A stretch of DNA of 64,000 bases from an uncultured Candidatus Rokubacteria bacterium (GTDB lineage Bacteria > Methylomirabilota > Methylomirabilia > Rokubacteriales > CSP1-6): assembly GCA_963789955.1 (NCBI GenBank), contig CAWBMV010000006.1:320001-384000 (forward strand). Reading direction: 5' to 3'. Under the pieces are notes generated by a model. The model was given only the letters and a program-made list of their open reading frames with translations, was not told the origin of the DNA and searched no databases. Below are positions 7,910 to 28,810 of this stretch, piece by piece; positions within the stretch are counted from its first letter, which is position 1, and each line of letters begins with the position of its first letter. The position numbers and the translations under genes are program-made.

Positions 7910-7989
7910 GCCGTCACGATATGCGGGTCGCCGGTGATGTGTCCAATGCATTTCTCCTCGTATAATCCATGCACGGAGTGCATCGCACC

Positions 7990-8945
7990 ATGGACCTGCG
8001 ACACCTGCGCGCCTTCGTGACCATCGTCGACGCCGGCGGCTTCGCGCGCGCCGGCACCAGGCTGCACCTGAGTCAGCCGGCGTTGTCGCGACAGATCCGG
8101 GCGTTCGAGGTCGAGCTCGGTGTTCGGCTGTTCGACCGTATCGGTCGCCGCGTTCAGCTCACCGCCGAGGGCCAGGATCTCCTGCGCCGGGCTCGCGAGC
8201 TCTTGACGGGAGCCGACTCATTCGGGGAGCGGGCCCGGGCTCTCAAGGGCGGCAAGACCGGCGTGCTGCGGGTCGGGGCCACGCCACAGGCGATGGAAAC
8301 TCTGCTGGCCGGCTTCCTTCCACGCTATCGGCGCGGTCATCCCGGGGTCGACGTGCACCTCGTCGAGGACGGCGGAATCCGGCTGGCCACACGCCTCGAG
8401 CACGGCGACGTTCATCTCGCGCTCACGGCGTCCACCGATGCGCGCTTTCGCCGGCGCCTGCTGGCTCCGCTCTACGTGCTGGCCGTGTTGCCCAGGTCAT
8501 TCCGGCTCGGCCGCCGGACCACCCTGGAGATCGCGGAGCTGGCGGACTCGCCGCTGCTCCTCACGCGTCGCGATTTTGCCTCTCGCGAATGGTTCGACGC
8601 CGCCTGCCAGCTCGCGCACCTGCGACCGCGCGTGCTGCTCGAGAGTGGAGCGCCGTCCACCCTGGTGGCGCTGGCTCGCGTCGGCTACGGCATCGCCGTC
8701 GTGCCGTCCAACGTTCGGATTCCGCGGAACGGTGTCCGGGCCGTGCCGCTCGTGCAGCGGGGCGCCCCATCGGACGATGGCTGAGTCTGGCCTGGGACCC
8801 GCGGCGATTCCTGGCCCCGTATGCGGAAGACTTCGTCGAGGAGCTCGTCGTGTACACGACGCGCGCGTCGGCAAAGCCGGCCTTTGCCAGACGCGCGCCG
8901 GCCTTGCCGCGTCCGAAGGAGACGCCGTCGGACCAGTCGCTCTAG
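7990..8945 (+). CDS. LysR-family transcriptional regulator, divergent from the cupin; indel near 8770
   Basis: MDLRHLRAF...LHLSQPALSRQIRAFEVELGVRLFDR HTH; C-terminus (WLSLAWDPRRFLAPYAEDFVEEL) continues in another frame. Confidence 0.9.
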
Positions 8946-11416: not shown

Positions 11417-12056
11417 ATGGCAGGCAACACGGACCTGTTCGAGATCATGCAGACCATGCGCGCGATGCGCCGCTTGAAGCCGGACCCGGTTCCCGACGAG
11501 CTGATCAGGAAGATCCTACAGGCCGGCACCTGCGCGCCCGAACGGCGGCAACACGCAGCGCTGGCGCTTCCTGGTGATCAAGGATCGGAAGATCAAGCAG
11601 GGCGTCCAGGTCTGGTACAAGAACGCCTTCGACGAGGTCGTGGGCCCTCGCTATCTCAAGAGCTCGCCGCCCCCGGGCGTCACGCGCGAGCAGTACAACC
11701 GGCAGCACGCGGCGGTGGAGTATCTGACCGATCACTTCCACGAAGCGCCCGTGTGGATCGTCGCATGCCTCGAAGAGGCCGCGGCGCCGACCCGCGGGTC
11801 CGGCGCGTCGATCTATCCGGCCGTGCAGAACATGCTGCTGGCGGCGCGGGCGCTCGGGCTCGGCGCCACCCTGACGACTCGGCACCTTCTGTACGAGAAG
11901 GAAGCGGAAGCCGCCCTCGGACTGCCGCCGGGCGTGCACTCCTACGCGATCATTCCCATCGGCTATCCGATGGGGAAGTTCGGCCCGGTCGGCCGCGGGC
12001 CGCTCAAGGAGATCGTGTACCAGGACCGCTGGGGTACGCCGTATCAGGGCGTCTAG
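11417..12056 (+). CDS. Nitroreductase-family protein; indel near 11540
   Basis: TMRAMRRLKPDPVPDELIRKIL..AP / NGGNTQRWRFLVI, ASIYPAVQNMLLAARALGLG, IPIGYP. Confidence 0.88.
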
Positions 12057-12065
12057 GTAGCCGCC

Positions 12066-12086
12066 GGGGGCCCGTCACGGGCCCCC
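12066..12086. terminator. GC-rich hairpin (terminator or REP-like) after the nitroreductase gene
   Basis: GGGGGCCCG-TCA-CGGGCCCCC, 9-bp perfect stem, no U tract. Confidence 0.45.
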
Positions 12087-12104
12087 TCCAAATCGTAAAG
12101 TCTC

Positions 12105-12133
12105 TTGACACAACCTCTGTTTCGACAGATTGT
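12105..12133 (+). promoter_or_regulatory. Possible sigma70 promoter for the giant-protein leader
   Basis: Perfect TTGACA at 12105, 17-nt spacer, weak -10 (GATTGT). Confidence 0.35.
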
Positions 12134-12558
12134 GAGCCAGCATTGCGCCCGCTGAGTGATCGAGCGGGCGACCCGTTTGGAGAAGCTCACCAATTGGTGG
12201 CTCCAAGACGGGGCTAGTGAACCGGGGCGTCTCTGTCCTCATTTCCTCGTGCCCCGACAGCGAGCTCGTGATTGAGCTATGGAGTTATCGATATAGAGGC
12301 TCGGTGCGGTAGTCCGCCGGGCCCCGGAACATCGGGGCATCCGTGGATCAGCCGGCCCGAATCGTTCGGCCTGATAGCCCTGCCATCTCACATCGGCGCC
12401 CCGGAATGCCTCGGCGGCGCCGGCCATCTCCCTAAACCGTCGACGAAGCCGGCCGTGTGTCTCTCCATCACGGTGCGGCGAACGGGGGGGACCTGGTCGA
12501 CCTGACGTAGCAGCGATTCCAGCGTGTCCTCTTCCCCTTCGACTCGCCCGGGAGGGTC

Positions 12559-15500
12559 ATGAAGAGCGATAAGCGGTTTGGGATTTTTGCGGTTGCCGTT
12601 GCTGTTGTCCTCGCGCTGTTCGGCTCGCCTCGGACCGCCAGCGGAGCTGTCACTTTCGTTCAGGCCGTGGGCGCGACCGATGACGCCGCTGCCGCTTCAG
12701 TAGCGCGCGCTTTCACCAGCACCAATACGGCCGGCAACCTCATCGTCGTTGCTGTCAGCTGGGGCGACCGGACGGCGCCCGCTGTCAGCGCGACCGACAC
12801 CCTCGGCAATATCTACTTCCTCGCCACCAACGACTTCGACCCGGGCAAGCGCCAGGGCCTCGCGATCCTCTTCGCCCCGAACATCCGAGCCGGAGCGAAC
12901 ACGGTCACCGTCAACTTCGGGGCGGCGAACGGCTATCGGCGAATCATCGTCAGCGAGTACAGCGGAGCCGCGACCGCGTCCCCGCTGGATGCCACGGCCA
13001 AGAATCGCGCGAACGGCACGAAGACCGCCAACGCCGTCACCAGCGCCTCGGCCACGACGACCGCGAACGGCGACCTGATCTTCGGCGCGGTCATGGACGA
13101 TTCGGGGTTTTTCGGCACGATCACGGCTGGGACCGGGTTCACGCGACGGGCGATCGTCAACAACGTAGACATGGCGACCGAGGACCTGGTCCAGGCCGCC
13201 GCCGGTCCGGTTGCCGCAACGTTCACGTTCAGCCGGGCCGACACCTATCTGGCCCAGATGGCCGCCTTCAAGGCGGCGCCGGCGGGGGGTGGAGGCCCCG
13301 CCGCCTCTTCGCTCGTCTGCGCTCCCTCGAGCCTGACGGCGGGCGCCTCGACGACTTGTACCGTCACGTTGAGCGCTCCGGCGCCGGCGGGGGGAAGTAC
13401 CGTCGCGTTGTCGTCCAACAACGCCGCCGCGCTGCCGGTGCCCGCATCTGTGACCGTACCGGCCGGGGCGACGTCTGCTGCCTTCACGGCAACGGCTGCG
13501 ACGGTCACGGCGGCTCAGACAGTCACCGTCTTCGCCACCCTTGGCGGCAGCGCCACCGCGACGGTCACCGTCACGCCTCCACTCCGGGTGTCCTCGCTCG
13601 TCTGCAATCCGACGAGCATCACCTCGGGAGCGTCGACGACGTGCACCGTCAATCTGAATCAGGCCGCCCCCACCGGGGGGAGCGTCGTCGCGCTCAGCTC
13701 GAACAACCCGTCAGTCCTGGGCGTGCCGACGTCTGTGACGGTGCCTGCCAGCGCGACGTCGGCCGCGTTCACGGCGGCCGGCGGCTCGGTCGCGACGACG
13801 CAAACGGCCGTCGTGACAGCGACGCTCGGCGCCAGTGCCACGGCAACCGTGACCGTCAAACCAGTCCTGAGCGTCTCGTCGCTGGTCTGTAGTCCGACGA
13901 GCGTCACATCAGGCGCCTCGACCACCTGCACGGTCAGCCTCAATCAGAACGCACCCGCGGGCGGCAGCGTTGTGGCCCTCGGCTCGAACAGCGCAGCGCT
14001 ACCCGTCCCGGCCTCCGTCACCGTTCCGGCCAACGCTCAGTCGGCGACATTCACGGCGACAGCCGCGTCGGTGGGCGCGGCTCAGACCGCCACGGTGACC
14101 GCGACGCTCGGCGCCAGCACCACCGCGACCGTGACGGTCACACCGATCCTCAGCGTGTCGTCGCTCGTCTGCAGTCCGACGAGCATCACGTCGGGCGCGG
14201 CGACCGCGTGCACCGTCAATCTCAATCAGAACGCCCCAGCAGGCGGGGGAGTAGTGGGGCTCGCTTCGAACAACGCGGCATTACCCGTTCCGGTTTCGAT
14301 CACCGTGCCGGCCGGCTCGGCGGCGACTACGTTCACGGCGACCGCCGCGTCGGTCGCGTCCCCTCAGACGGTGACCGTGACCGCCACGCTCGGCGCCACT
14401 GCCACGGCGACCGTGACCGTCGCCCCCATCAACCCCAACGTGTCCTCGCTGGTCTGTAGCCCGACGAGCGTGACGTCCGGTGCCTCGACGACGTGCACCG
14501 TCACCCTGGATCTGGCGGCGCCGGCGGGTGGGAGAACCGTTGCGCTCGGCTCGAACAATACGACGGTACTGCCCATCCCGGCCTCCGTGACGGTCGCTGC
14601 TGCCACGAATTCGGCGACGTTCAGCGCCACGGCCGCATTGGTAGCGACGGCGCAGATTGTGACCGTCACCGCGACGCTCGGCGCCAGCAGCACGGCAACC
14701 GTGACCGTCACACCTCCAAGCCCGAGCGTCTCGTCGCTCGCGTGCGCTCCCGCGAGCCTGCCGTCGGGCGCGACGACCACATGCACGGTCACGCTGAATC
14801 TGGCGGCGCCCGCGGGTGGAAGCACCGTCGCGCTCGGGTCCAACAACCCCGCCGCGCTGGCGGTCCCGGCGTCCGTCGTCGTACCCGCGAGCACCACGTC
14901 GACGACATTCGCGGCCAGCGCCGGAACGGTAGCCGGGGCTCAGACGGTCACCCTGAGCGCAACGCTCGGCGGCAGCACGACCGCGACCGTGACCGTCACG
15001 CCCGTTCTCGGCGTGTCCTCTCTGGTCTGCTATCCGGCGACCGTCACGTCGGGCGCTTCCACGACGTGCACCGTCACGTTGAACCAGGCAGCCCCCGCCG
15101 GCGATGGCACCGTCACGCTCGCCTCGAGCAACACCACGGTGCTGTCGGTGCCGGCCTCGGCGACCGTCGCGGCCGGGGCGACGTCGGCCACCTTCACGGT
15201 GACGGCCGGCTCGGTCGCGGCGCCTCAGCCCGTCACCGTGACGGCGACGCTCGGCGGAAACGTCGCCGCGACCGTCACCGTCACGCCCATCACCATCGTG
15301 TCGACGCTCGCGTGCACCCCGTCGAGCGTGACCGCGGGCACGTCGACGGCGTGCACTGTCACGTTGAATCAGGCCGCGCCGACCGGCGGAACCGCCGTCA
15401 CGTTAGCCTCGAGCAATGCCACTGCGCTGCCGGCGCCGGCGTCGGTGACCGTGCCGGCCGGCGCGGCGTCGACCACGTTCACGGCGACGTCCGGCTCGGT

Positions 15501-18500
15501 GGCGACGCTGCAACCCGTGACCTTGACCGCCACGCTCGGCGCCAGCAGCGCGACCGCCACCGTGACGGTCGCGCCGAGCCCGAGAGTGTCCTCGCTCGCA
15601 TGTGCGCCGGCCAGCCTGACGTCGGGCGCTGCGACGACGTGCACGATCACCTTGGATCAGGCGGCGCCCGCCGGCGGCAGCACCGTCACGCTCGCGTCGA
15701 ACAACACCACCGCGTTGCCGGTCCCGGCTTCGCTGACCGTACCGGCCACCACGACCACGGCGACGTTCACGGCCACCGCGGGCTCCGTCGCGGCCTCTGA
15801 GACCATCACCGTGACCGCAACGCTCGGCGGCAGCACCATCGCGACCGTGACCATCACGCCAGCCCTCGGCGTGTCCTCGCTCGTCTGCAGCCCGACGAGC
15901 GTGACATCGGGCGCCTCCACGACTTGCACCGCGACCTTGAATCAGGCGGCGCCGACCGGCGGAAGCGCGGTCATGCTCGCGTCGAGCATCCCGGCCGCGC
16001 TGCCGGTGCCCGCCTCGGTGAGCGTACCGCCCGGCGCGACGTCCGCGACGTTCACGGCACCCGCCGGCACGGTGGCGACGGCTCAGACCGTGACGGTGAC
16101 CGCAACGCTTGGCGGGACCACCACCACCACCGTCATCGTCACGCCCATCACGAGCGTGTCGTCGCTGGCGTGTGCGCCGCCGAGCCTCGCCCCCGGCGCC
16201 GCCACCACATGTACCGTCACGTTGAACCAGCCGGCGCCCGCCGGCGGGAGCGTCGTCGCGCTCGCCTCCAGCAACGCCGCCGCGTTACCCGTCCCGCCGT
16301 CGGCCACTGTGCCGGCGAGCGCGACGGCGACCACGTTCACCACGACAGGCGGCGCAGTCGCGACGTCGCAGACCGTGACGGTGACCGCGACCTTGGGCAG
16401 TAGCGCGACCGCGACCATCACCGTCGCGCCGAACCCGTCCGTATCCGCGCTCGCGTGCGTGCCGACCACCGTCGCGTCAGGCGCGGCGACGACATGCACC
16501 GTCACCTTGGATCAAGCGGCCCCGGTCGGCGGAAGCGCTGTCATGCTCGCGTCGAACAACACAGCCGCGTTGTCTGTGCCCGCCTCGGTCGCGGTCGCAG
16601 CTGCGGCAACGTCCGCCACATTCACGGCGACGGGCGGCTCGGTCGCGACGCCGCAAACCGTGACCCTGACGGCGACGTTCGGTGGGAACAGCACCGCGGT
16701 GGTCACCGTCACTCCCAATCCCGCCGTGACATCCCTCGCATGCGCGCCAACGAGCGTGACCTCAGGCACGTCGACGACGTGCACCGTCACGCTGGATCAG
16801 CCGGCCCTCGCCGGCGGGAGCACCGTCGGGATCTCGTCGAACAACACCACCGCGTTACCGGTCCCGGCTTCGGTCACGGTGCCGGCCAGCACGACGTCGA
16901 CCACGTTCACGGCCACTGCCGGCACGGTGGCCGCGTCTCAGACGGTCACGCTCACCGCAACACTCGGCGGCAATACCACCGCGACGGTGACCGTCACGCC
17001 GAGCCTCGCGGTGTCGTCGCTGGCGTGCGCTCCGGCGAGCCTCAACCCCGGCGTCGCGACCACATGCACCGTCACGTTGAATCAGGCGGCGCCCGCCGGC
17101 GGAAGCCCGGTGACGCTCGCCTCGAGCAACACCACGGCGCTGCCCGTTCCGGCGACCGTCACCGTGCCGGCCGCCACGACCTCGACCACGTTCACGGCGA
17201 CCGCGGGCTCGGTCGCGACATCCCAGACGGTCACCGTGACTGCGACGCTCGGAGGCAACACCACCGCGACCGTCACCGTGACGCCAGGCCCGAGCGTCTC
17301 GTCTCTCGCATGCGCGCCCTCGAGCGTGACGTCAGGGGCGAGCACGACGTGCACGGTCACGCTGGATCAGGCCGCGCCGGCCGGTGGAAGCGCCGTCACC
17401 CTGGCGTCGAGCAACACCACGGCGCTACCCGTACCCGCGTCCGTGACGGTTCCCGCCGCGACGAATTCGACGACGTTCACGGCGGTGGCCGGCTCGGTGG
17501 CCACCTCTCAGACCGTCACCGTGACCGCAACGCTCGGCGCCAGCGCTCCGACCTCGACGGTGACGGTCACCCCGAGCCTCAGCGTGTCCTCGCTCGCCTG
17601 CGCTCCGCCGAGCGTCGCTGGCGGCACCCCCACGACGTGCACCGTTGCCCTGGCTCAGCCCGCGCCGAGCGGCGGGAACACGGTCACGATCGCCTCGAAC
17701 AACACGACCGCGCTACCGGTACCGGCGTCCGTCACCGTGCCGGCCGGTGCGACGTCCACGACCTTCACGGCCACGGCCGGCTCGGTGGCGACGTCTCAGA
17801 CTGTCATCCTGACCGCTACCCTCGGCGGCAGCACCACGACCGCGACCGTGACCGTCACGCCCGGCGGGGCGAGCGTGTCGACGCTCGTGTGCGCTCCCGC
17901 GAGCGTTGCGTCGGGCGTCTCGAGCACGTGCACGATCACATTGACCCAGGCGGCGCCGAGCGGTGGAAGTGTCGTCACGCTCGCTTCGAGCGACACGTCC
18001 GCGCTGACCATCCCGGCTTCGGTGACCGTACCCCCCGCGATGAGCACCACCATGTTCACGGCGACCGCGGGGACGGTCGCGGCGACCCAGGCGGTGACGG
18101 TGACCGCGACGCTGGGTGGCAGCACGACCGCGACCGTGACCATCAACCCGGTCGCGCTGGTCTCGCTGGCGGTGACCCCCGCCAATCCGTCGATCGCGGC
18201 GGGCACCACGGTGCAATTCACCGCCACCGGCACGTACAACAATGGCGGCTCCCAGAATCTGACGACGTCGGTCACGTGGAGCTCGTCGGCGACCGGCGTG
18301 GCGACGATCAGCGGCACCGCCGGCAGTCAGGGACTCGCGACCAGCGCGTCGCCGGGAACCACAACGATCAGCGCGGTGTCCGGCTCGGTCTCCGGATCGA
18401 CGCCCCTGACCGTGACCCCGGCCATCGTTCCGATCACCTTCGTGCAGGCGGGCACCGCGACGAGCGACACCGCGGCCACGTCGATCGCTCGGGCCTTCAC

Positions 18501-21320
18501 GGCCAACAACACGGCGGGCAATCTCATCATCGTCGCGGTGAGCTGGGGAGATCGCACGGCCGCGTCCATCAACGCGACCGATACCCTCGGCAATACCTAT
18601 TTCGTCGCCACCAACGATTTCGACACGAACAATCGCCAGGGCCTCGCGATCCTCTTCGCTCCGAACATCCGGGCCGGCGCGAACACCGTCACGGTCAACT
18701 TCGGCGCGTCGAACGCCTACCGTCGGATCGTGGTCAGCGAATACAGCGGGATCGCCACCTCGTCTCCGCTCGACGGGGTCGCCAAGAATCGCGCCATCGG
18801 AACCACCGCCGCCAACGCGATCACCAGCACGGCGGCCACGACCACCGTGAACGGTGATCTGATCTTCGGCGTCGCCATGGACGACTCGGGCTTCTTCGGG
18901 ACGATCACCGCCGGGACGAACTTCACCCGGCGGGCGGTCGTCAACAACATCGACATGGCCACCGAGGACCGGGTTCAGGCGACGGCCGGCTCGGTCGCGG
19001 CCACCTTCACGTTCAGCCGGGCTGACGCCTACCTGGCGCAGATGGCCGCCTTCAAGCCGATGTCAGCGGGTGGGGGAGGCGGCGGCGCGCCCAGTGTGTC
19101 ATCGCTCGCGTGCGCGCCCGCGAGCCTCGTCTCGGGCGGCACGACGACTTGCACGGTCACCCTGACGCAGGCAGCCCCGACCGGTGGCAGTGTCGTGACC
19201 CTCGCGTCGAACAATCCGAGCGCGCTGCCCGTGCCCGCCTCGGTGACGGTCCCTGCCGGCTCCGGGTCGGCGACCTTCACCGCGACGGCCCCGACCGTGA
19301 CCTCGCCGCAGACGGTAACCGTGACCGCCACACTCGGCGGTACCGCCGCCGCGACCTTGACGGTGGGCTCCAGCAGTACGAGCGTGTCGTCACTCGCGTG
19401 CGCACCTGCGAGCCTGGCGTCAGGCACCTCGACGACGTGCACGATCACGCTGACCCAGGCGGCGCCTGCCGGCGGCAGCACCGTTACCTTGTCCTCGAAC
19501 AGCGTTGCGGCGCTGCCCGTGCCCGCGTCGGCCACCGTCCCTGCGACCGCGACGTCGATCACTTTCACGGCGACGGCCGGCGCAGTGCCCACCCCGCAAA
19601 CAGTCACGGTGACGGCAACACTCGGCGGCAGCGCCAGCACGACTGTGACCGTGACCCCCGGGAGCCCGAGCGTCTCGTCCCTCGTGTGCTCGCCGTCGAC
19701 CCTGACGTCCGGCGCGTCGACCCTTTGCACGGTGAACCTCACGCAGTCGGCCCCGGCCGGTGGGAGCACGGTCTCGCTGTCGTCGAACAACACACCCGCA
19801 CTGCCGGTGCCCGCGTCCGTGACGGTGCCGGCCAGCTCGACGTCGGCCACCTTCACGGCGACGGCCGGAACGGTGACGACGCCACAAGCGGCGAAGGTGA
19901 CGGCGACGCTCGGCCCGACCTCCACCAGCACGACCTTGACCGTGGCCTCGAGCCAGGCGCAGCTCAAAGGGGCGTGGTCCGGGCCGTTCACGTGGCCGAT
20001 CGTCGCCGTGCACATGGCGATGCTGCCCACGGGCAAGGTCATGGCGTGGGACCTGGACAACAACGCAGTGCAGCTCTGGAATCCGGCCACGGACGTCTTC
20101 ACCGACGTCACGAACACCGCCGAGAGCTTCTCGTTCTTCTGCACGGGTCAGACGGCGCTGGCCGACGGGAGAATCCTGATCGACGGCGGCCACGTCAACT
20201 GGGACGTCGGGAGCCGTCACGCCAACGCGTTCAATCCCGTGACGCAAACGTGGACCCCGCTGGCGCAGATGGCGGTCGAGCGCTGGTATCCCACCGTCAT
20301 CACGTTGGCCGACGGGCGTGTCCTGGCCGTGGCGGGACACACGACCTGCAAGACATGCGTGGCGCAAACGCCGGAAGTGTACGACCCGGTCGCGAACACC
20401 TGGACGCAGCTCCCCGGCGCCAAGACAGGGATTCCGACGCAGTATCCGCACATGTACGTCCTGCCCGACGGGCGTGTCCTGCAGGTCGCCTCGTCGGAAG
20501 AAGTGATTCCCACGAGGGTCCTGGACCTGACGACACAAACGTGGACGACGGTCGATCCCAATCCTCTCGACGGCGGAAGCTCGGTGATGTACTTGCCCGG
20601 GAAGGTGATGAAGTCCGGCGCGGCGTGGGACGACGGCAACGGCAATCCAACCAACGGCACGTATGTGCTCGACATGACTCAGCCCGCGCCGACCTGGCGA
20701 CAGACCATCGGCATGACGTTCCCGCGACTCACGCACAACCTGACGCTCTTGCCGGACGGCACCGTGCTGGTCACCGGCGGCTCCACCAACTCGTACATCT
20801 CCGATCCGGCTTCCGTGGTCTATGACGCCGAGCTCTGGTCACCGGTGACCGAGACCTGGACGACGATGGCGTCGAGCTACAGGTACCGCGGATGTATCAC
20901 TCGACGGCCCTGCTGCTGCCCGACGGCCGTGTGCTGAAGGCCGGCGGCGGGCGATTTGGCGGCACGGGACCCGGCGCCGACCAGTTCAGCGCGGAGATCT
21001 ATTCGCCGCCGTACCTGTTCAAGGGTGTGCGGCCAACCATCACGTCGGCTCCGGCCGCGATCGGGTACGGGTCGACGTTCACGATCGCCACCCCGGACGC
21101 GGCACAGATCGCCGCGGTGTCCCTCGTCCGCCTCGGAAGCGTGACCCACACGTTCAACAGCGGTCAGCGCTTCCTGCCCTTGGCCTTCCAGCCGATCGCC
21201 GGAGGCTTGAGCGTGACGGCGCCGCTCAGCGGGAACCTCGCGCCGCCCGGCTACTACATGCTCTTCATCGTGAACACCAATGGCGTGCCGTCGGTCGCGC
21301 CGTTCGTGCAGATTCAATAA
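12559..21320 (+). CDS. Giant secreted protein (~2,900 aa): signal peptide, duplicated 208-aa domain, 20 Ig-like repeats, Big_2-like domain, C-terminal galactose-oxidase-like kelch + DUF1929 domain; indel near 20875
   Basis: ORF 12559..20937 plus 20892..21320; GGAGG RBS; FFC, RWYP, RMYHS, VTHTF and PPGYYMLF motifs of AA5 copper-radical oxidases. Confidence 0.9.
13306..18150 (+). repeat. 17 tandem ~95-aa (~285-nt) intragenic Ig-like repeats
   Basis: Consensus SSLxCxPxSxxSGxxTTCTVTLxQAAPAGGSxVxLxSNNxxALPVPASVTVPAxxTSxTFTATAGxVAxxQTVTVTATLGGxxTATVTVTP, counted by eye. Confidence 0.9.
19099..19950 (+). repeat. 3 further copies of the ~95-aa Ig-like repeat
   Basis: Same consensus, located between the second 208-aa domain and the oxidase domain. 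Confidence 0.9.
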
Positions 21321-21345
21321 GCGGACCACCGCGCCGTCAGGCGAC

Positions 21346-21409: not shown

Positions 21410-21928
21410 ATGGCCATCAAGCTGATCCATCACGTCAACGTCCAGGTGAGCGACCGCGAGCGCACGCGCGCCTGGTACGAGAAGGTCCTCGGCGCCGAGT
21501 TCCTCGACCGCGGTCCGGCGCTCAACAGGCGGCAGCTCCAGCTCAGGCTCGGCTGCGGCGAGATCCATTTCACCGTGACGCCGCGGCCGGTCATCCCGGC
21601 GTCGAGCCACTTCGCGATCGAGGTCGACGACTGGGACGCCACGATGGCGCACCTCGACACGCTCGGCATCCAGCACGTGCGGACGTCGGCCGCGAGCACC
21701 GGCACCGACATCGGCGGCACGGACCCGCGGCAGGGGCGGCGGGAGGACAGCAGCGAGCACTACGCGTACATCGAGGACCCCGACGGGAACTTGATCGAGC
21801 TCGTCAACCATCCGCTCGGGCTACAGGATTCTCAGGGCCGCAAGGTCGAGGTCACGCACGATCCCAAGGGGCTCCGCTGGGTCCAGATTCCCGGCTTCGT
21901 CGAGGCAGAGACCGCGCGCGAGCGCTGA
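21410..21928 (+). CDS. VOC/glyoxalase-family protein
   Basis: IHHVNVQVSD..RAWYEKVLG, HFAIEVDD, YIEDPDGNLIEL; GGAGG RBS. Confidence 0.88.
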   Translation: MAIKLIHHVNVQVSDRERTRAWYEKVLGAEFLDRGPALNRRQLQLRLGCGEIHFTVTPRPVIPASSHFAIEVDDWDATMAHLDTLGIQHVRTSAASTGTDIGGTDPRQGRREDSSEHYAYIEDPDGNLIELVNHPLGLQDSQGRKVEVTHDPKGLRWVQIPGFVEAETARER

Positions 21929-23626: not shown

Positions 23627-24924
23627 TGATGCCTCAGCCGTAGGTGTTACCGGGGACCGACGGCAATGCCTCACAATGGAGTTACCGAAGATTCGGCGAC
23701 CCGGCGGCGCGAGTCGCCACATTTCCAGAGCCGATCGAGAGTATCGCCGATGTGGGTGGCGAGCGTCGCAGGGTCCACGGCCAGAAACTGAGCCTCGAGG
23801 GCACGACGGCCGTCCGCCGCGAGGGCGCCGGCGGCGAGCAAGCGCTGATACGGCGTCTGGGCGCGGTCATAGGCGCGCACGCGTTTACTGCCGACGCGGC
23901 GGGTGTGCAGCACTTTGCGAAAGGGCCGGAAGAAGTTCAGTTGCACGCGCAGCAAGTCGTACAGGCGTCGGAGCAGGCCGAAGGCGATGTGCGAGCTGTA
24001 GCGATCCCGACCCACGAGCCGACGCACCGCCAGCCAGTTGCGCAGTTCCACCCACGCCTGATCGTTCTTGCGATATTGCCGGCCGCGGGTGACACGGATG
24101 TTATGCCGACGGCAATAGCGCAGTAGTCCCCGGTTGAGGAATTCGCTGCCGTTGTCGGTGTGCCATTCGCGCAGGGGGACGGGCAGGCGCTGGTGCACAT
24201 GCTGCACGCCGGCGCCCACGCGGACGGCGCCCACGCCCCAGATCGGCTCGAGCTCGATCCAGCCGCTGGCGACGTCGACCGCCACCAGGCTCGCGAGGTG
24301 AAAGCCCTCGGTCGACTCCCCACAATGCAGGACCAGATCGGCCTGGACCGCGCCGGGCTGGCTGCCGGCCCATTCGCTCCACGTCCGCACCGGGATCTGC
24401 TGCTTCAACGCGCTCGCCGCCAGGGAGACGCGATACGGCTGCCGGCCCAGACGCGTGCGGCACGGCCGGAGGAAGCGATCGAGGGTGGCCGGACTGAGCG
24501 CGAGCAGCTGGCGGCGGTGGTCGGGGGCGATCCGCAGTCCGTGGCGTTCGAGCGCGGGGACGAGGGTCGGCAGCGCCGCCGCGAGCAGCTTGCCACACAG
24601 CCGATCGCTGATGTGCCAGAGGCGCTCGAGCGTGGGCACGAGGCTGCGATCGTACTGCACCCGGCGACCGGCGCGCCGCCGTGGCCGCGGCGTCCGAGCC
24701 AAGGCGCGGATCGCCGCCTTGCGATGACAGCGCAGCGTGCGGCAATACTCATCCAGGATCCGGCTCTTCATTTCGCGCTCCGCGGCCACGTATCGCCGCC
24801 GAACGGCTTCCGTGTACTCCGCACGCGCTGGCTTGGTCACCGGGCCTCCCTTCGGGTGTCCTGCTCGGTAACACCCTTTGTGAGGCATCGACCTCTTCGC
24901 CGGTAACAGTTCTAATGAGGCACA
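23627..24924 (-). mobile_element. Insertion sequence (~1.3 kb) with TG...CA ends and paired sub-terminal GGTAAC-N7-9-TGAGGCA repeats
   Basis: Motif on the - strand at 23630-23652 and 23667-23687 and on the + strand at 24866-24887 and 24901-24922, enclosing a single transposase. Confidence 0.75.
23671..24840 (-). CDS. DDE transposase, integrase-core type (family not assigned; ISNCY/IS481-like)
   Basis: GTG start after GGGAGG; N-terminal HTH-like ILDEYCRTLRCHRKAAIRAL; VQADLVLH (D), HTDNGSEF (D), KNDQAWVE (E); QTPYQRLL. Confidence 0.88.
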   Translation of the reverse strand: MTKPARAEYTEAVRRRYVAAEREMKSRILDEYCRTLRCHRKAAIRALARTPRPRRRAGRRVQYDRSLVPTLERLWHISDRLCGKLLAAALPTLVPALERHGLRIAPDHRRQLLALSPATLDRFLRPCRTRLGRQPYRVSLAASALKQQIPVRTWSEWAGSQPGAVQADLVLHCGESTEGFHLASLVAVDVASGWIELEPIWGVGAVRVGAGVQHVHQRLPVPLREWHTDNGSEFLNRGLLRYCRRHNIRVTRGRQYRKNDQAWVELRNWLAVRRLVGRDRYSSHIAFGLLRRLYDLLRVQLNFFRPFRKVLHTRRVGSKRVRAYDRAQTPYQRLLAAGALAADGRRALEAQFLAVDPATLATHIGDTLDRLWKCGDSRRRVAESSVTPL

Positions 24925-25056
24925 TCGCGACCTTGCGGCGCGCCGTTCGGGCGGAGTACGCTGGCGGGGCTCGCGGCCCCGGCCGCGCGTCGCCCCGAAA
25001 AACGTCAAGACGCCGGTGCCCTCCGAGGCGGACGGCGAGACAGGCGGAGTACGACG

Positions 25057-27089: not shown

Positions 27090-28047
27090 ATGGCGCGATT
27101 GACTCGCGAAGACGTGCTGAAGAAAGCCGAAGCGCTCAAGAACTGGGGCAAGTGGGGACCCGACGACGAGATCGGCGTCCTCAACTACATCACGCCCGAG
27201 GACATCGTCAACGCGGCCCGGCTGGTGAAGAAGGGCAAGGTCTTTCGTCTCGGCCTCGAGCTCGACGAGAACGGGCCTCAGCGCGGCATCTTCGGCGGAC
27301 GCTGGAACCCGATGCATCAGATGCTCGCGACGGGCACCGACGCCGTCGCCGGCAAGCACGACGTGACGCCGGGCCTTCGCTACGCGGACGACGCGATCAA
27401 CCTGCCGACCCAGGCCGCCACGCAGTGGGACGCGCTGTCGCACGTGTTCCTCGTCGACAAGATGTGGAATGGCTATCCGGCGACCTGGTCGACAGTCGCG
27501 GCGCCCATCGGAACGGCATCGAGAAGTTCGCGAACAAGATGGTCGGCCGGGGTGTGCTGCTCGACGTGGCGCGCTGGAAAGGGCGTGGCCTGCCTCGCGG
27601 ACGGCTATGGGATCACGGTCGCCGACCTCGACGCGACCGCGCATGCTCAGGGCGTCACCGTGCGCCGCGCCGACTTCGTGATCATCCGCACGGGACAGAT
27701 GGAAGATCGGCTCGCGCGCGGCGAGTGGGGCGGCTACGCCGGCGGCGACGCTCCCGGGCTGGCGTTCGAGACGCTCGACTGGATCCACGGCAAGCAGATC
27801 GCCGGCATCTGCAGCGACACCTGGGGAATCGAGGTCCGGCCCAACGACACCGGCCCCGACGTCTTCCAGCCCTGGCACTGGGTCACGATCCCCGCGATCG
27901 GGATCGTGCACGGCGAGATCTTCTATCTGAAGGAGCTCGCCGAGGACTGTGCCGCCGACCGCGTCTACGAGTTCTTCTTCTGCGCGCCGCCGCTCGTCAT
28001 CTCCCAAGGGCACCGGATCGCCGATCAACCCTCAGGCGATCAAGTAG
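27090..28047 (+). CDS. Cyclase-family (kynurenine formamidase-like) metal-dependent hydrolase; several indels
   Basis: NWGKWGPDDEIGVLN, TQWDALSH, GRGVLLDVAR, IIRTG, FFFCAPPL, GSPINPQAIK* across frames. Confidence 0.88.
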
Positions 28048-28060
28048 CGCGGCGCGGCCT

Positions 28061-28810
28061 TCAGCCGCGCCCGAGATGACCGACGATCGTCTTCTGGTAG
28101 TCGAGGAACGCGACGCTCAGCGGATCGCGAGGGCGGGGGAGCGTGATGCGCGTCTGGGCGCGGACCGTGCCCGGGTGCGGCGAGAGGACGATCACGCGAT
28201 CGGCCAGGTAGACGGCCTCCGCCACGTTGTGGGTGACGTAGAGAACCGTCTTGCGCGTTTCCTCCCAGACGCCGACGAGAAAGCGCTGCATCTCGTCCCG
28301 GGTCAGCGCGTCGAGCGCCGCGAACGGCTCGTCCATCAGCAGGACCGACGGGTTGTAGGCGAGCGCGCGGGCGATGGCCACGCGCTGCTGCATCCCGCCG
28401 GAGAGCTCGTGCGGGTAGGCGGCGGCGAAGCGCTCGAGGTCGACCAGCTTGAGGAAGCGCCGCGCCGTCTCGGCGCGCTCCGCCGCGGCGACGCCGCGCA
28501 TCTGAAGCCCGAACTCCACGTTGCGCTGCGCCGTCCGCCACGGAAAGAGCTGGGCGAAGTCCTGGAAGACCACGCCGCGGTCGCCACCGCGACCGGTCAC
28601 GACCTCGCCGCCGATGCGGATCTCGCCCGCGGTCGGCCGGAGAAATCCCGCGACGATGTTGAGCAGGGTGGTCTTCCCGCAGCCGCTCCGGCCGACGATG
28701 CAGAGAAACTCCGAGGCGGCGACGTCGAAGCTGACCTCGCTCAGCGCCGTGACGGGGCCGTCGGTGCCGGCGTAGGCATACCCGACCTTGGAGAGCTCGA
28801 TGTGCGGCAT
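28061..28810 (-). CDS. NitT/TauT ABC transporter ATP-binding protein
   Basis: GRSGCGKTT, LSGGMQQR, LLMDEPFAALD, VTHN. Confidence 0.93.
   Translation of the reverse strand: MPHIELSKVGYAYAGTDGPVTALSEVSFDVAASEFLCIVGRSGCGKTTLLNIVAGFLRPTAGEIRIGGEVVTGRGGDRGVVFQDFAQLFPWRTAQRNVEFGLQMRGVAAAERAETARRFLKLVDLERFAAAYPHELSGGMQQRVAIARALAYNPSVLLMDEPFAALDALTRDEMQRFLVGVWEETRKTVLYVTHNVAEAVYLADRVIVLSPHPGTVRAQTRITLPRPRDPLSVAFLDYQKTIVGHLGRG

Follow-up and report, generated by a model that had tools for sequence, protein, structure and literature searches.

Few bacterial copper-radical oxidases of family AA5 have been described, GlxA of Streptomyces foremost among them. GlxA is reported to be active on glycolaldehyde only, and published GlxA-type enzymes are narrow and weak in activity (PMC11611005); GlxA joins CslA in a complex that makes cellulose (PMC11022532) and needs DyP (PMC4736821). 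In GlxA and the AA5_1 aldehyde oxidase the stacking Trp is the residue directly before the cross-linked Tyr, while in galactose oxidase it is Trp290, contributed by a different loop (PMC13094651), and Trp290 and Arg330 are described as key indicators of galactose oxidase activity (PMC11267884). Here we analyze a gene in a stretch of 64,000 nucleotides (the window) from an uncultured Candidatus Rokubacteria bacterium (assembly GCA_963789955.1, contig CAWBMV010000006.1, positions 320,001 to 384,000) that encodes such an oxidase as the head of an unusually long, probably secreted chain. An initial description made from the letters of the window (the sequence-only reading) gave the order as signal peptide, a domain A, 17 repeats, a Big_2 domain, a second copy of domain A, three repeats, a kelch oxidase and an E-set tail, and translation and Pfam searches bear this out. 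The same description called GlxA the characterised bacterial member of AA5, which is too narrow, as published work also names SCO2837, Stigmatella FbfB and an enzyme from Burkholderia (PMC11611005, PMC11267884).

Both the kelch families and the PF09118 E-set exceed their Pfam cut-offs, so the propeller/E-set order of AA5 is present, and the first shell is complete in alignment with GlxA and galactose oxidases: the cross-linking Cys and Tyr, the axial Tyr and two His all lie exactly where the sequence-only reading had put them, as a codon check showed (Table 1). Three of these ligands lie past a break in the reading frame that is repaired by reads of other strains (see below). When the intact domain of the orthologue in G006, a genome of the same genus, was used as the query in a sequence search of the structure database, the best match was GlxA (4UNM, E 5e-53), followed by 9G8H (1.5e-51), galactose oxidase (3e-42) and the fungal aldehyde oxidase FgrAldOx (1e-28). 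The motif RWYPT, with Trp directly before the cross-linked Tyr, is common to the G006 domain, this protein and GlxA, which also share first-shell residues, the consecutive Trp-Tyr, the kelch propeller and the E-set. In contrast to GlxA, however, the protein has no lid (query residues 83-85 span GlxA chain positions 112-233, a loss of ~120 residues), no evident retained membrane helix, where GlxA has one, and no linked cslA, while it does have a CxxC loop, an Ig (immunoglobulin-like) stalk, domain A and a diderm host. It also falls far under the cut-off of the GlxA family NF052501 (800 bits), the G006 orthologue scoring 253.9 and the relative P0015 244.2.

The comparison with galactose 6-oxidases of AA5_2 (Fusarium galactose oxidase 1GOF; 9G8H/9G43) gave a similar outcome: the first-shell residues and the fold are shared, but the position of Trp290 is held by Thr (Tyr+18), followed by CxxC, the GGSW of galactose oxidase aligns to AGHT, the alignment is gapped around Arg330 with no Arg evident, and there is no CBM32. 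Moreover, the CxxC of 9G8H follows the axial Tyr-His, whereas here it follows the cross-linked Tyr; we take the former to be the Cys515-Cys518 disulfide of galactose oxidase, on which a literature search returned nothing. Fungal AA5_1 aldehyde (glyoxal) oxidases such as FgrAldOx (9N3U) have the Trp directly before the cross-linked Tyr and, in FgrAldOx, repeated WSC binding modules before a C-terminal catalytic module, as repeated modules precede the head here, but they match more weakly, the accessory domains are others, and Glyoxal_oxid_N reaches 33 bits against a cut-off of 37.5 over the N-part alone. By sequence, then, the head is a member of AA5 that is neither GlxA nor galactose oxidase, and it is probably an active copper-radical oxidase. 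Because its Trp-Tyr second sphere is shared with GlxA and AA5_1 and the Trp290 position is Thr, we favor, with some reserve, an aldehyde-oxidase-like over a galactose-specific chemistry. Of the earlier label "galactose/glyoxal oxidases", the assignment to AA5 copper-radical oxidases stands and the galactose-type site is the less likely one. The same genome encodes a second, stand-alone AA5 protein of 620 amino acids with a signal peptide and the full set of five cofactor motifs (FCSG, RWYS, YHN, THAF) (G000:C8:42323-44182, L155).

The CxxC loop marks a group that extends far beyond this organism. A tree built from 211 domains placed every one of the 128 CxxC domains inside a single clade of 134 (support 0.949), in a midpoint-rooted sample whose CxxC rows were mostly chosen by likeness to the query and which includes no characterised enzyme. 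None of the 127 CxxC homologues is aromatic at the position of Trp290, and the second sphere is Trp-Tyr in 96 of them and Tyr-Tyr in 28. These proteins stem from Acidobacteria, Eisenbacteria, Burkholderiales, Chloroflexi and Rokubacteria, among others, and a literature search that left most subscription journals, CAZy pages and supplements outside its reach returned no paper on the CxxC clade or on a Rokubacterial AA5 protein.

The sequence-only reading had set the giant protein against the small GlxA. A search with the oxidase region picked out 640 proteins of 1,535-4,886 amino acids at E<=1e-20 from 8,000 candidates, plain kelch proteins being counted as well (4 of the top 120). Size alone does not set the protein apart: 111 of the 120 best matches of at least 1,535 amino acids keep all five catalytic residues and one relative, P0073 (3,175 amino acids), carries 20 Big_7 repeats and an intact head; large modular AA5 proteins are common in databases. 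CxxC was present in 110 of the 120, and the giant members of the clade (P0073, P0003-P0012, P0015) resemble our protein in catalytic clade, signal peptides, Ig stalks and lectin-like modules. Most, however, use Big_7-like (102 of 120) and LamG-like (88) domains, whereas domain A occurs in 32 and the 95-residue repeat of our protein in two. Domain A or LamG was found in 97 of 116 giant AA5 relatives; the idea that the two are mutually exclusive modules had no support (p=0.64). The sequence-only reading had proposed a search for the same architecture in related genomes, and its answer is divided, as the plan of A, Ig stalk, A, Ig and oxidase recurs in G013 and G015, built of Big_7 repeats, and the exact architecture is rare. 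G006 encodes a short version of 826 amino acids with domain A, one repeat and an intact oxidase, the head being 68% identical. Of 151 genomes examined from the phylum, 33 contain the E-set family, and the frames listed for it reach at most 1,757 amino acids. On these sequences, the giant stalked AA5 protein is a common design and the module combination described here a rare version of it.

Several further arrangements were seen among the relatives. Giant chains with two AA5 domains occur (P0003-P0012, P0014), ten of which pair a Tyr-Tyr with a Trp-Tyr domain, suggesting two specificities, while P0014 has one intact and one ligand-less head. In P0025, P0046 and others, CxxC oxidases are fused to domains like 3-keto-disaccharide hydrolase (DUF1080) that score above the Pfam cut-off; these domains might act like lectins or point to an oxidative breakdown of glycosides. 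A cyanobacterial genome has three tandem AA5 genes (L113:8476-15008).

Is the giant gene intact in its own genome? The assembly holds an open reading frame at 12559-20937 (2,792 amino acids) and an overlapping second frame terminating at 21320. Contigs of runs X3, X5, X6 and X7 (all four runs of one set) and of run X4 (one of four runs in another) have one base fewer at 20871 and one fewer at 20874; these contigs are those of other strains, ~97-98% alike, rather than the window's own reads, and for runs X1, X2 and X16 there was no long break-bridging contig among those listed. Removal of the two bases gives an open frame of 2,919 amino acids, exceeding every open reading frame among those listed for the assembly. 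No further lesion is found across the 8.7 kb of the gene, and the ratio of nonsynonymous to synonymous substitution rates (dN/dS) relative to G006 comes to 0.25 for the part preceding the break and 0.22 for the part following it; the gene is under purifying selection. The neighboring nitroreductase gene has an indel too, also corrected by reads, and elsewhere in the assembly Omp85 and Gsp genes are split or fused. Because contigs of five of eight runs lack the two bases, giving one 2,919-residue frame, the break is most likely an assembly error, and we consider it very probable that the organism has a single open reading frame, as the sequence-only reading had it. Inflation of the repeats by assembly was rejected, as the DNA identity of the 20 copies is 63-79% and most of the stalk is covered by tiling contigs from other strains. 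Contigs of RNA run X16 are near-identical to parts of the gene and equally to its flanks, and since contigs cannot show transcription we draw no support from them. Besides the nitroreductase (11417-12056), for which the read comparison was made, a LysR regulator (7969-8784) and a cyclase (27090-28079) look frameshifted in the window.

The 20 stalk repeats, each with an invariant Cys pair, together comprise 35% Ser and Thr and 0.7% charged residues. A sequence search of the PDB with the repeat returned no significant match. A two-repeat model (mean predicted local distance difference test score, pLDDT, 96.3; predicted template modeling score, pTM, 0.74) matches solved invasin and intimin at Z 11.3, with a root-mean-square deviation (rmsd) of 7-8 over both domains and of 2.2-3.0 in single-domain rows, and the repeats are predicted to fold as invasin/intimin-type Ig domains. 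Stalks of invasin, intimin and LigA adhesins are likewise tandem Ig-like domains of the same repeat fold (Z 11.3 for invasin and intimin D00-D0; 9.2 for LigA), but here there is neither an inverse-autotransporter barrel (domain A follows the signal peptide directly and no barrel family was detected) nor a lipoprotein anchor, and there are an enzyme at the tip, a Cys pair in each repeat and hardly any charge. An extended Ig domain is ~4 nm long. With 21 Ig domains (20 repeats and Big_2), the stalk, if extended, would measure roughly 80-90 nm.

The number of repeats that accompany domain A and an oxidase ranges from one in G006 through three in P0015 (three A-repeat units) and seven in the partial P0013 to 20 here; the stalk is a tunable spacer, dispensable for the basic design. 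In L124 there appears by eye to be one unit more, repeat 4 of the window looking like a fusion of two repeats. A profile of the repeat found 13,899 clusters at E<=0.001; among the best 150 matches, none has an AA5 head and 48 have Cys-type repeats. In 20 repeat proteins that were scanned, heads included polysaccharide deacetylase, PIG-L deacetylase, LamG and DUF4082, and 10 had no Pfam family. The repeat is thus a large family (P0243-P0392) without a fitting Pfam model, with up to ~40 copies per protein and deacetylase and lectin-like heads, and a small secreted protein of the same genome consists of just two Cys-free copies (G000:C12:55550-56191, L152).

Domain A was modeled with high confidence (pLDDT 96.9, pTM 0.93) as two beta sandwiches. 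It belongs to no Pfam, PHROG or NCBIfam family (PHROGs gave none for 11 proteins), had no significant sequence match in the PDB and reached a TM-score over the query (TMq) of at most 0.34 in Foldseek against the PDB; such blank searches do not establish a new fold. In all, 78 predicted viral structures matched at E<=0.001 (best TMq 0.89), minor tail proteins of mycobacteriophages and Gordonia phages matched at TMq 0.56-0.72, and the Atlas places the domain beside phage clusters (0.96), although none of nine stretches searched in IMG/VR by peptide patterns was confirmed. Among solved structures, the best match was the TNF-like lectin PLTL (Z 7.3, rmsd 3.3 over 97 aligned residues), followed by a phage receptor-binding head (6.7), none reaching 8. 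A profile search for an internal repeat gave a weak signal (E 0.02). Domain A is therefore predicted to have a double jelly-roll fold in common with the minor tail proteins of phages, and likely has a binding role; we put at about even the chances that it binds a glycan and tethers the protein. The two copies have diverged with a dN/dS of 0.16. Domain A also occurs in many other secreted modular proteins that have no oxidase, often as the last domain (L039, L044, L129-L131, L135).

How might so large a chain reach the cell surface? Omp85 genes and three secretins show that the host has an outer membrane. Contig C37 carries a gsp operon with GspE, F, G, K and D and pseudopilins, GspK being detected with PF21687 after a search with PF03934 was empty. 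In this operon (G000:C37:282000-293500, L153) gspF and gspG form one frame and gspD seems split, probably through assembly indels; a pilM-Q cluster lies on contig C34. A Sec signal peptide, a diderm host and a gsp operon are necessary, not sufficient, for a type II secretion substrate, and we regard export by this system as fairly probable. The sequence-only reading had seen no T1SS, autotransporter barrel, RTX, LPXTG or PEP-CTERM signal: a barrel is indeed not seen, yet an export route exists. The invariant Cys pairs suit periplasmic folding, and the genome has two Sco copper chaperones. The absence of a linked glycan synthase was rightly noted: the flanks are a nitroreductase and a VOC gene, and neither a glycan synthase nor a peroxidase was found among the 26 large open reading frames of 28000-64000 or the 10 neighbors scanned. 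Contig C4 carries the genome's one cellulose-synthase-like gene, which is unlinked to the oxidase.

The locus itself appears to record a gain and a loss. Among 14 VOC-gene loci in other genomes of the genus, the nitroreductase gene is directly adjacent in seven and separated by one other gene in G015, an oxidase tail is at the site in G004, and five more distant loci show neither within 1.5 kb. In G004, moreover, domain A and no fewer than three repeats come after the nitroreductase. A contig of run X1, 96-98% identical to the flanks, joins 12058 to 21341 via 52 other bases. The gene thus appears to have been inserted alone between two neighboring genes and lost again in a close strain, the simplest reading being one insertion in the lineage of G000-G004 and a later deletion in the strain of X1. 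A functional link to the downstream glyoxalase-fold gene was rejected as coincidence, as VOC abuts nitroreductase in seven relatives without an oxidase there. Scans of the upstream region for promoters and terminators were empty, with no sigma-70 consensus and no match to a sigma-54 pattern. A GC-rich hairpin directly follows the nitroreductase stop at the left insertion edge (12060-12086), but it has no T-run and we do not call it a terminator; an integrase-core (IS-type) transposase lies 2.3 kb downstream on the reverse strand (23671-25008). The sequencing runs containing this stretch are soil, rhizosphere and sediment metagenomes.

Table 1. Features of the giant oxidase gene and its flanks, in window positions.
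Feature	Position	Strand	Basis or remarks
Nitroreductase, left flank; host gene outside the unit	11417..12056	+	Frameshifted near 11537-11540 in the assembly
Upstream region, presumed promoter	12059..12558		Gained and lost with the gene; absent where relatives join nitroreductase to VOC gene
Sec-type signal peptide, ~29 residues	12559..12645	+	Basic-hydrophobic pattern assigned by eye; homologues have the start of domain A here as well
Domain A copy 1, predicted all-beta double jelly-roll, likely binding module	12646..13287	+	Structure model; viral structure matches
Repeats 1-17, predicted invasin/intimin-type Ig domains of 95 residues (94-97)	13300..18156	+	Two invariant Cys each; two-repeat model
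Big_2 Ig domain	18160..18432	+	PF02368, E 1.9e-12
Domain A copy 2	18433..19065	+	80% identical to copy 1
Repeats 18-20	19093..19953	+	Sequence repeats
AA5 kelch propeller	19957..21029	+	Cys 20140, Trp 20284, Tyr 20287, CxxC 20347-20358, Tyr 20895, His 20898
Frame break, two extra bases	20871..20874	+	Absent from contigs of 5/8 runs; G006 orthologue intact
Galactose-oxidase-like E-set (DUF1929), then stop codon	21030..21320	+	PF09118, E 2.9e-28; His 21147
VOC/glyoxalase-fold gene, right flank; host gene outside the unit	21410..21928	+	Pfam scan; loci of relatives

Taken together, these observations suggest a protein that would be exported by Sec, acquire its disulfides and copper in the periplasm, cross the outer membrane by type II secretion and attach to a surface glycan through domain A, so that aldehyde-oxidase-like chemistry at the tip, on small aldehydes or primary alcohols, would release hydrogen peroxide (H2O2) up to tens of nm from the attachment point. 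We judge this whole chain of steps to stand at roughly even odds. Several observations count against it. The second-sphere Trp is replaced by Tyr in 28 of the 127 CxxC homologues, and five CxxC relatives lack two or more ligands; the pTM of the two-repeat model leaves a rigid rod a mere possibility; the middling matches of domain A to solved structures leave lectin function putative; and type II export of a 280-kDa chain is suggested by co-occurrence. In addition, no DyP peroxidase was found in the genome, which is 87% complete, and a C-terminal helix, PEP or LPxTG motif was found in none of 120 relatives by a crude test.

Which other explanations would fit? We take them in descending order of probability. 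The first, itself unlikely, is that the protein is mainly an adhesin or biofilm scaffold whose propeller serves as a sugar-binding tip, catalysis being minor or dispensable. In its favor, the close relative P0013 shares the modules, with 73% identity in the head, yet Cys, cross-link Tyr, axial Tyr and one of the two His are all missing from it, ligands are lost as well in P0043, P0052, P0106 and P0121, and stalks of the 95-residue repeat exist without a recognised catalytic head, but all five residues are kept in 111 of the 120 giant relatives, in this protein, in G006 and in P0015. Somewhat harder to sustain is a role like that of GlxA, in which the oxidase would partner the unlinked cellulose-synthase-like enzyme and mature or cross-link the cell's own glycan. 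GlxA is the best solved match, the synthase-like gene and the GlxA-CslA precedent exist, and aldehydes on a matrix glycan could, by established chemistry, cross-link it. However, the missing lid, the lack of an evident retained membrane helix, the score so far below the family cut-off and the lack of a synthase among the open reading frames scanned argue otherwise; a glycosyltransferase GT2 query also matched none of 91 homologue loci (a single query with no positive control), and the gene moves alone.

We think it doubtful, too, that the protein is a contact-range oxidative weapon, with domain A gripping the surface of another microbe and the head delivering H2O2. The fold of domain A is common to minor tail proteins of mycobacteriophages and Gordonia phages, and interaction genes typically show a patchy pattern of gain and loss, but a shared fold says nothing of function, no linked immunity or peroxide-defence gene was found among the open reading frames scanned, diffusion of H2O2 reaches far past 90 nm, and published GlxA-type enzymes are, as noted, narrow and weak. 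Least probable is a true frameshift in this strain, which would make the gene a recent pseudogene without three copper ligands; such a strain-specific lesion keeps a small probability because the correcting contigs come from other strains, and the deletion of the whole gene in the close strain of run X1 shows it to be dispensable, but the read-corrected or split genes elsewhere in the assembly, the lack of any other lesion and a dN/dS equal on either side of the break all speak against it.

We conclude that the export, attachment and peroxide-releasing chain set out above, for all the points that weigh against it, accounts best for this protein, one of unusual length within a large group of bacterial enzymes on which we found no study in the literature searched. 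The stalked adhesin-enzyme design is a familiar theme, which limits the surprise, but the gene points the way to a large clade that spans soil phyla and has an active-site signature of its own, and it exposes two unnamed domain families, the Ig repeat (about 13,900 clusters) and the phage-tail-like module. With the ~450-residue oxidase domain of the intact relative in G006 (L016:2954-4312, minus strand), it can be tested directly which substrates are used and what the CxxC loop does, with relevance to copper-radical chemistry, biocatalysis and extracellular H2O2 in soil. Speculatively, a widespread bacterial subfamily of copper-radical oxidases, with an open active site, a Trp/Tyr-Tyr second sphere and a CxxC loop beside the radical cofactor, might serve as surface-targeted oxidants, in which case receptor-binding modules shared with phage tails would here aim the enzyme at glycans, whether on other cells or in the matrix, and recombination in the Ig stalk would tune its reach from a few to ~90 nm.

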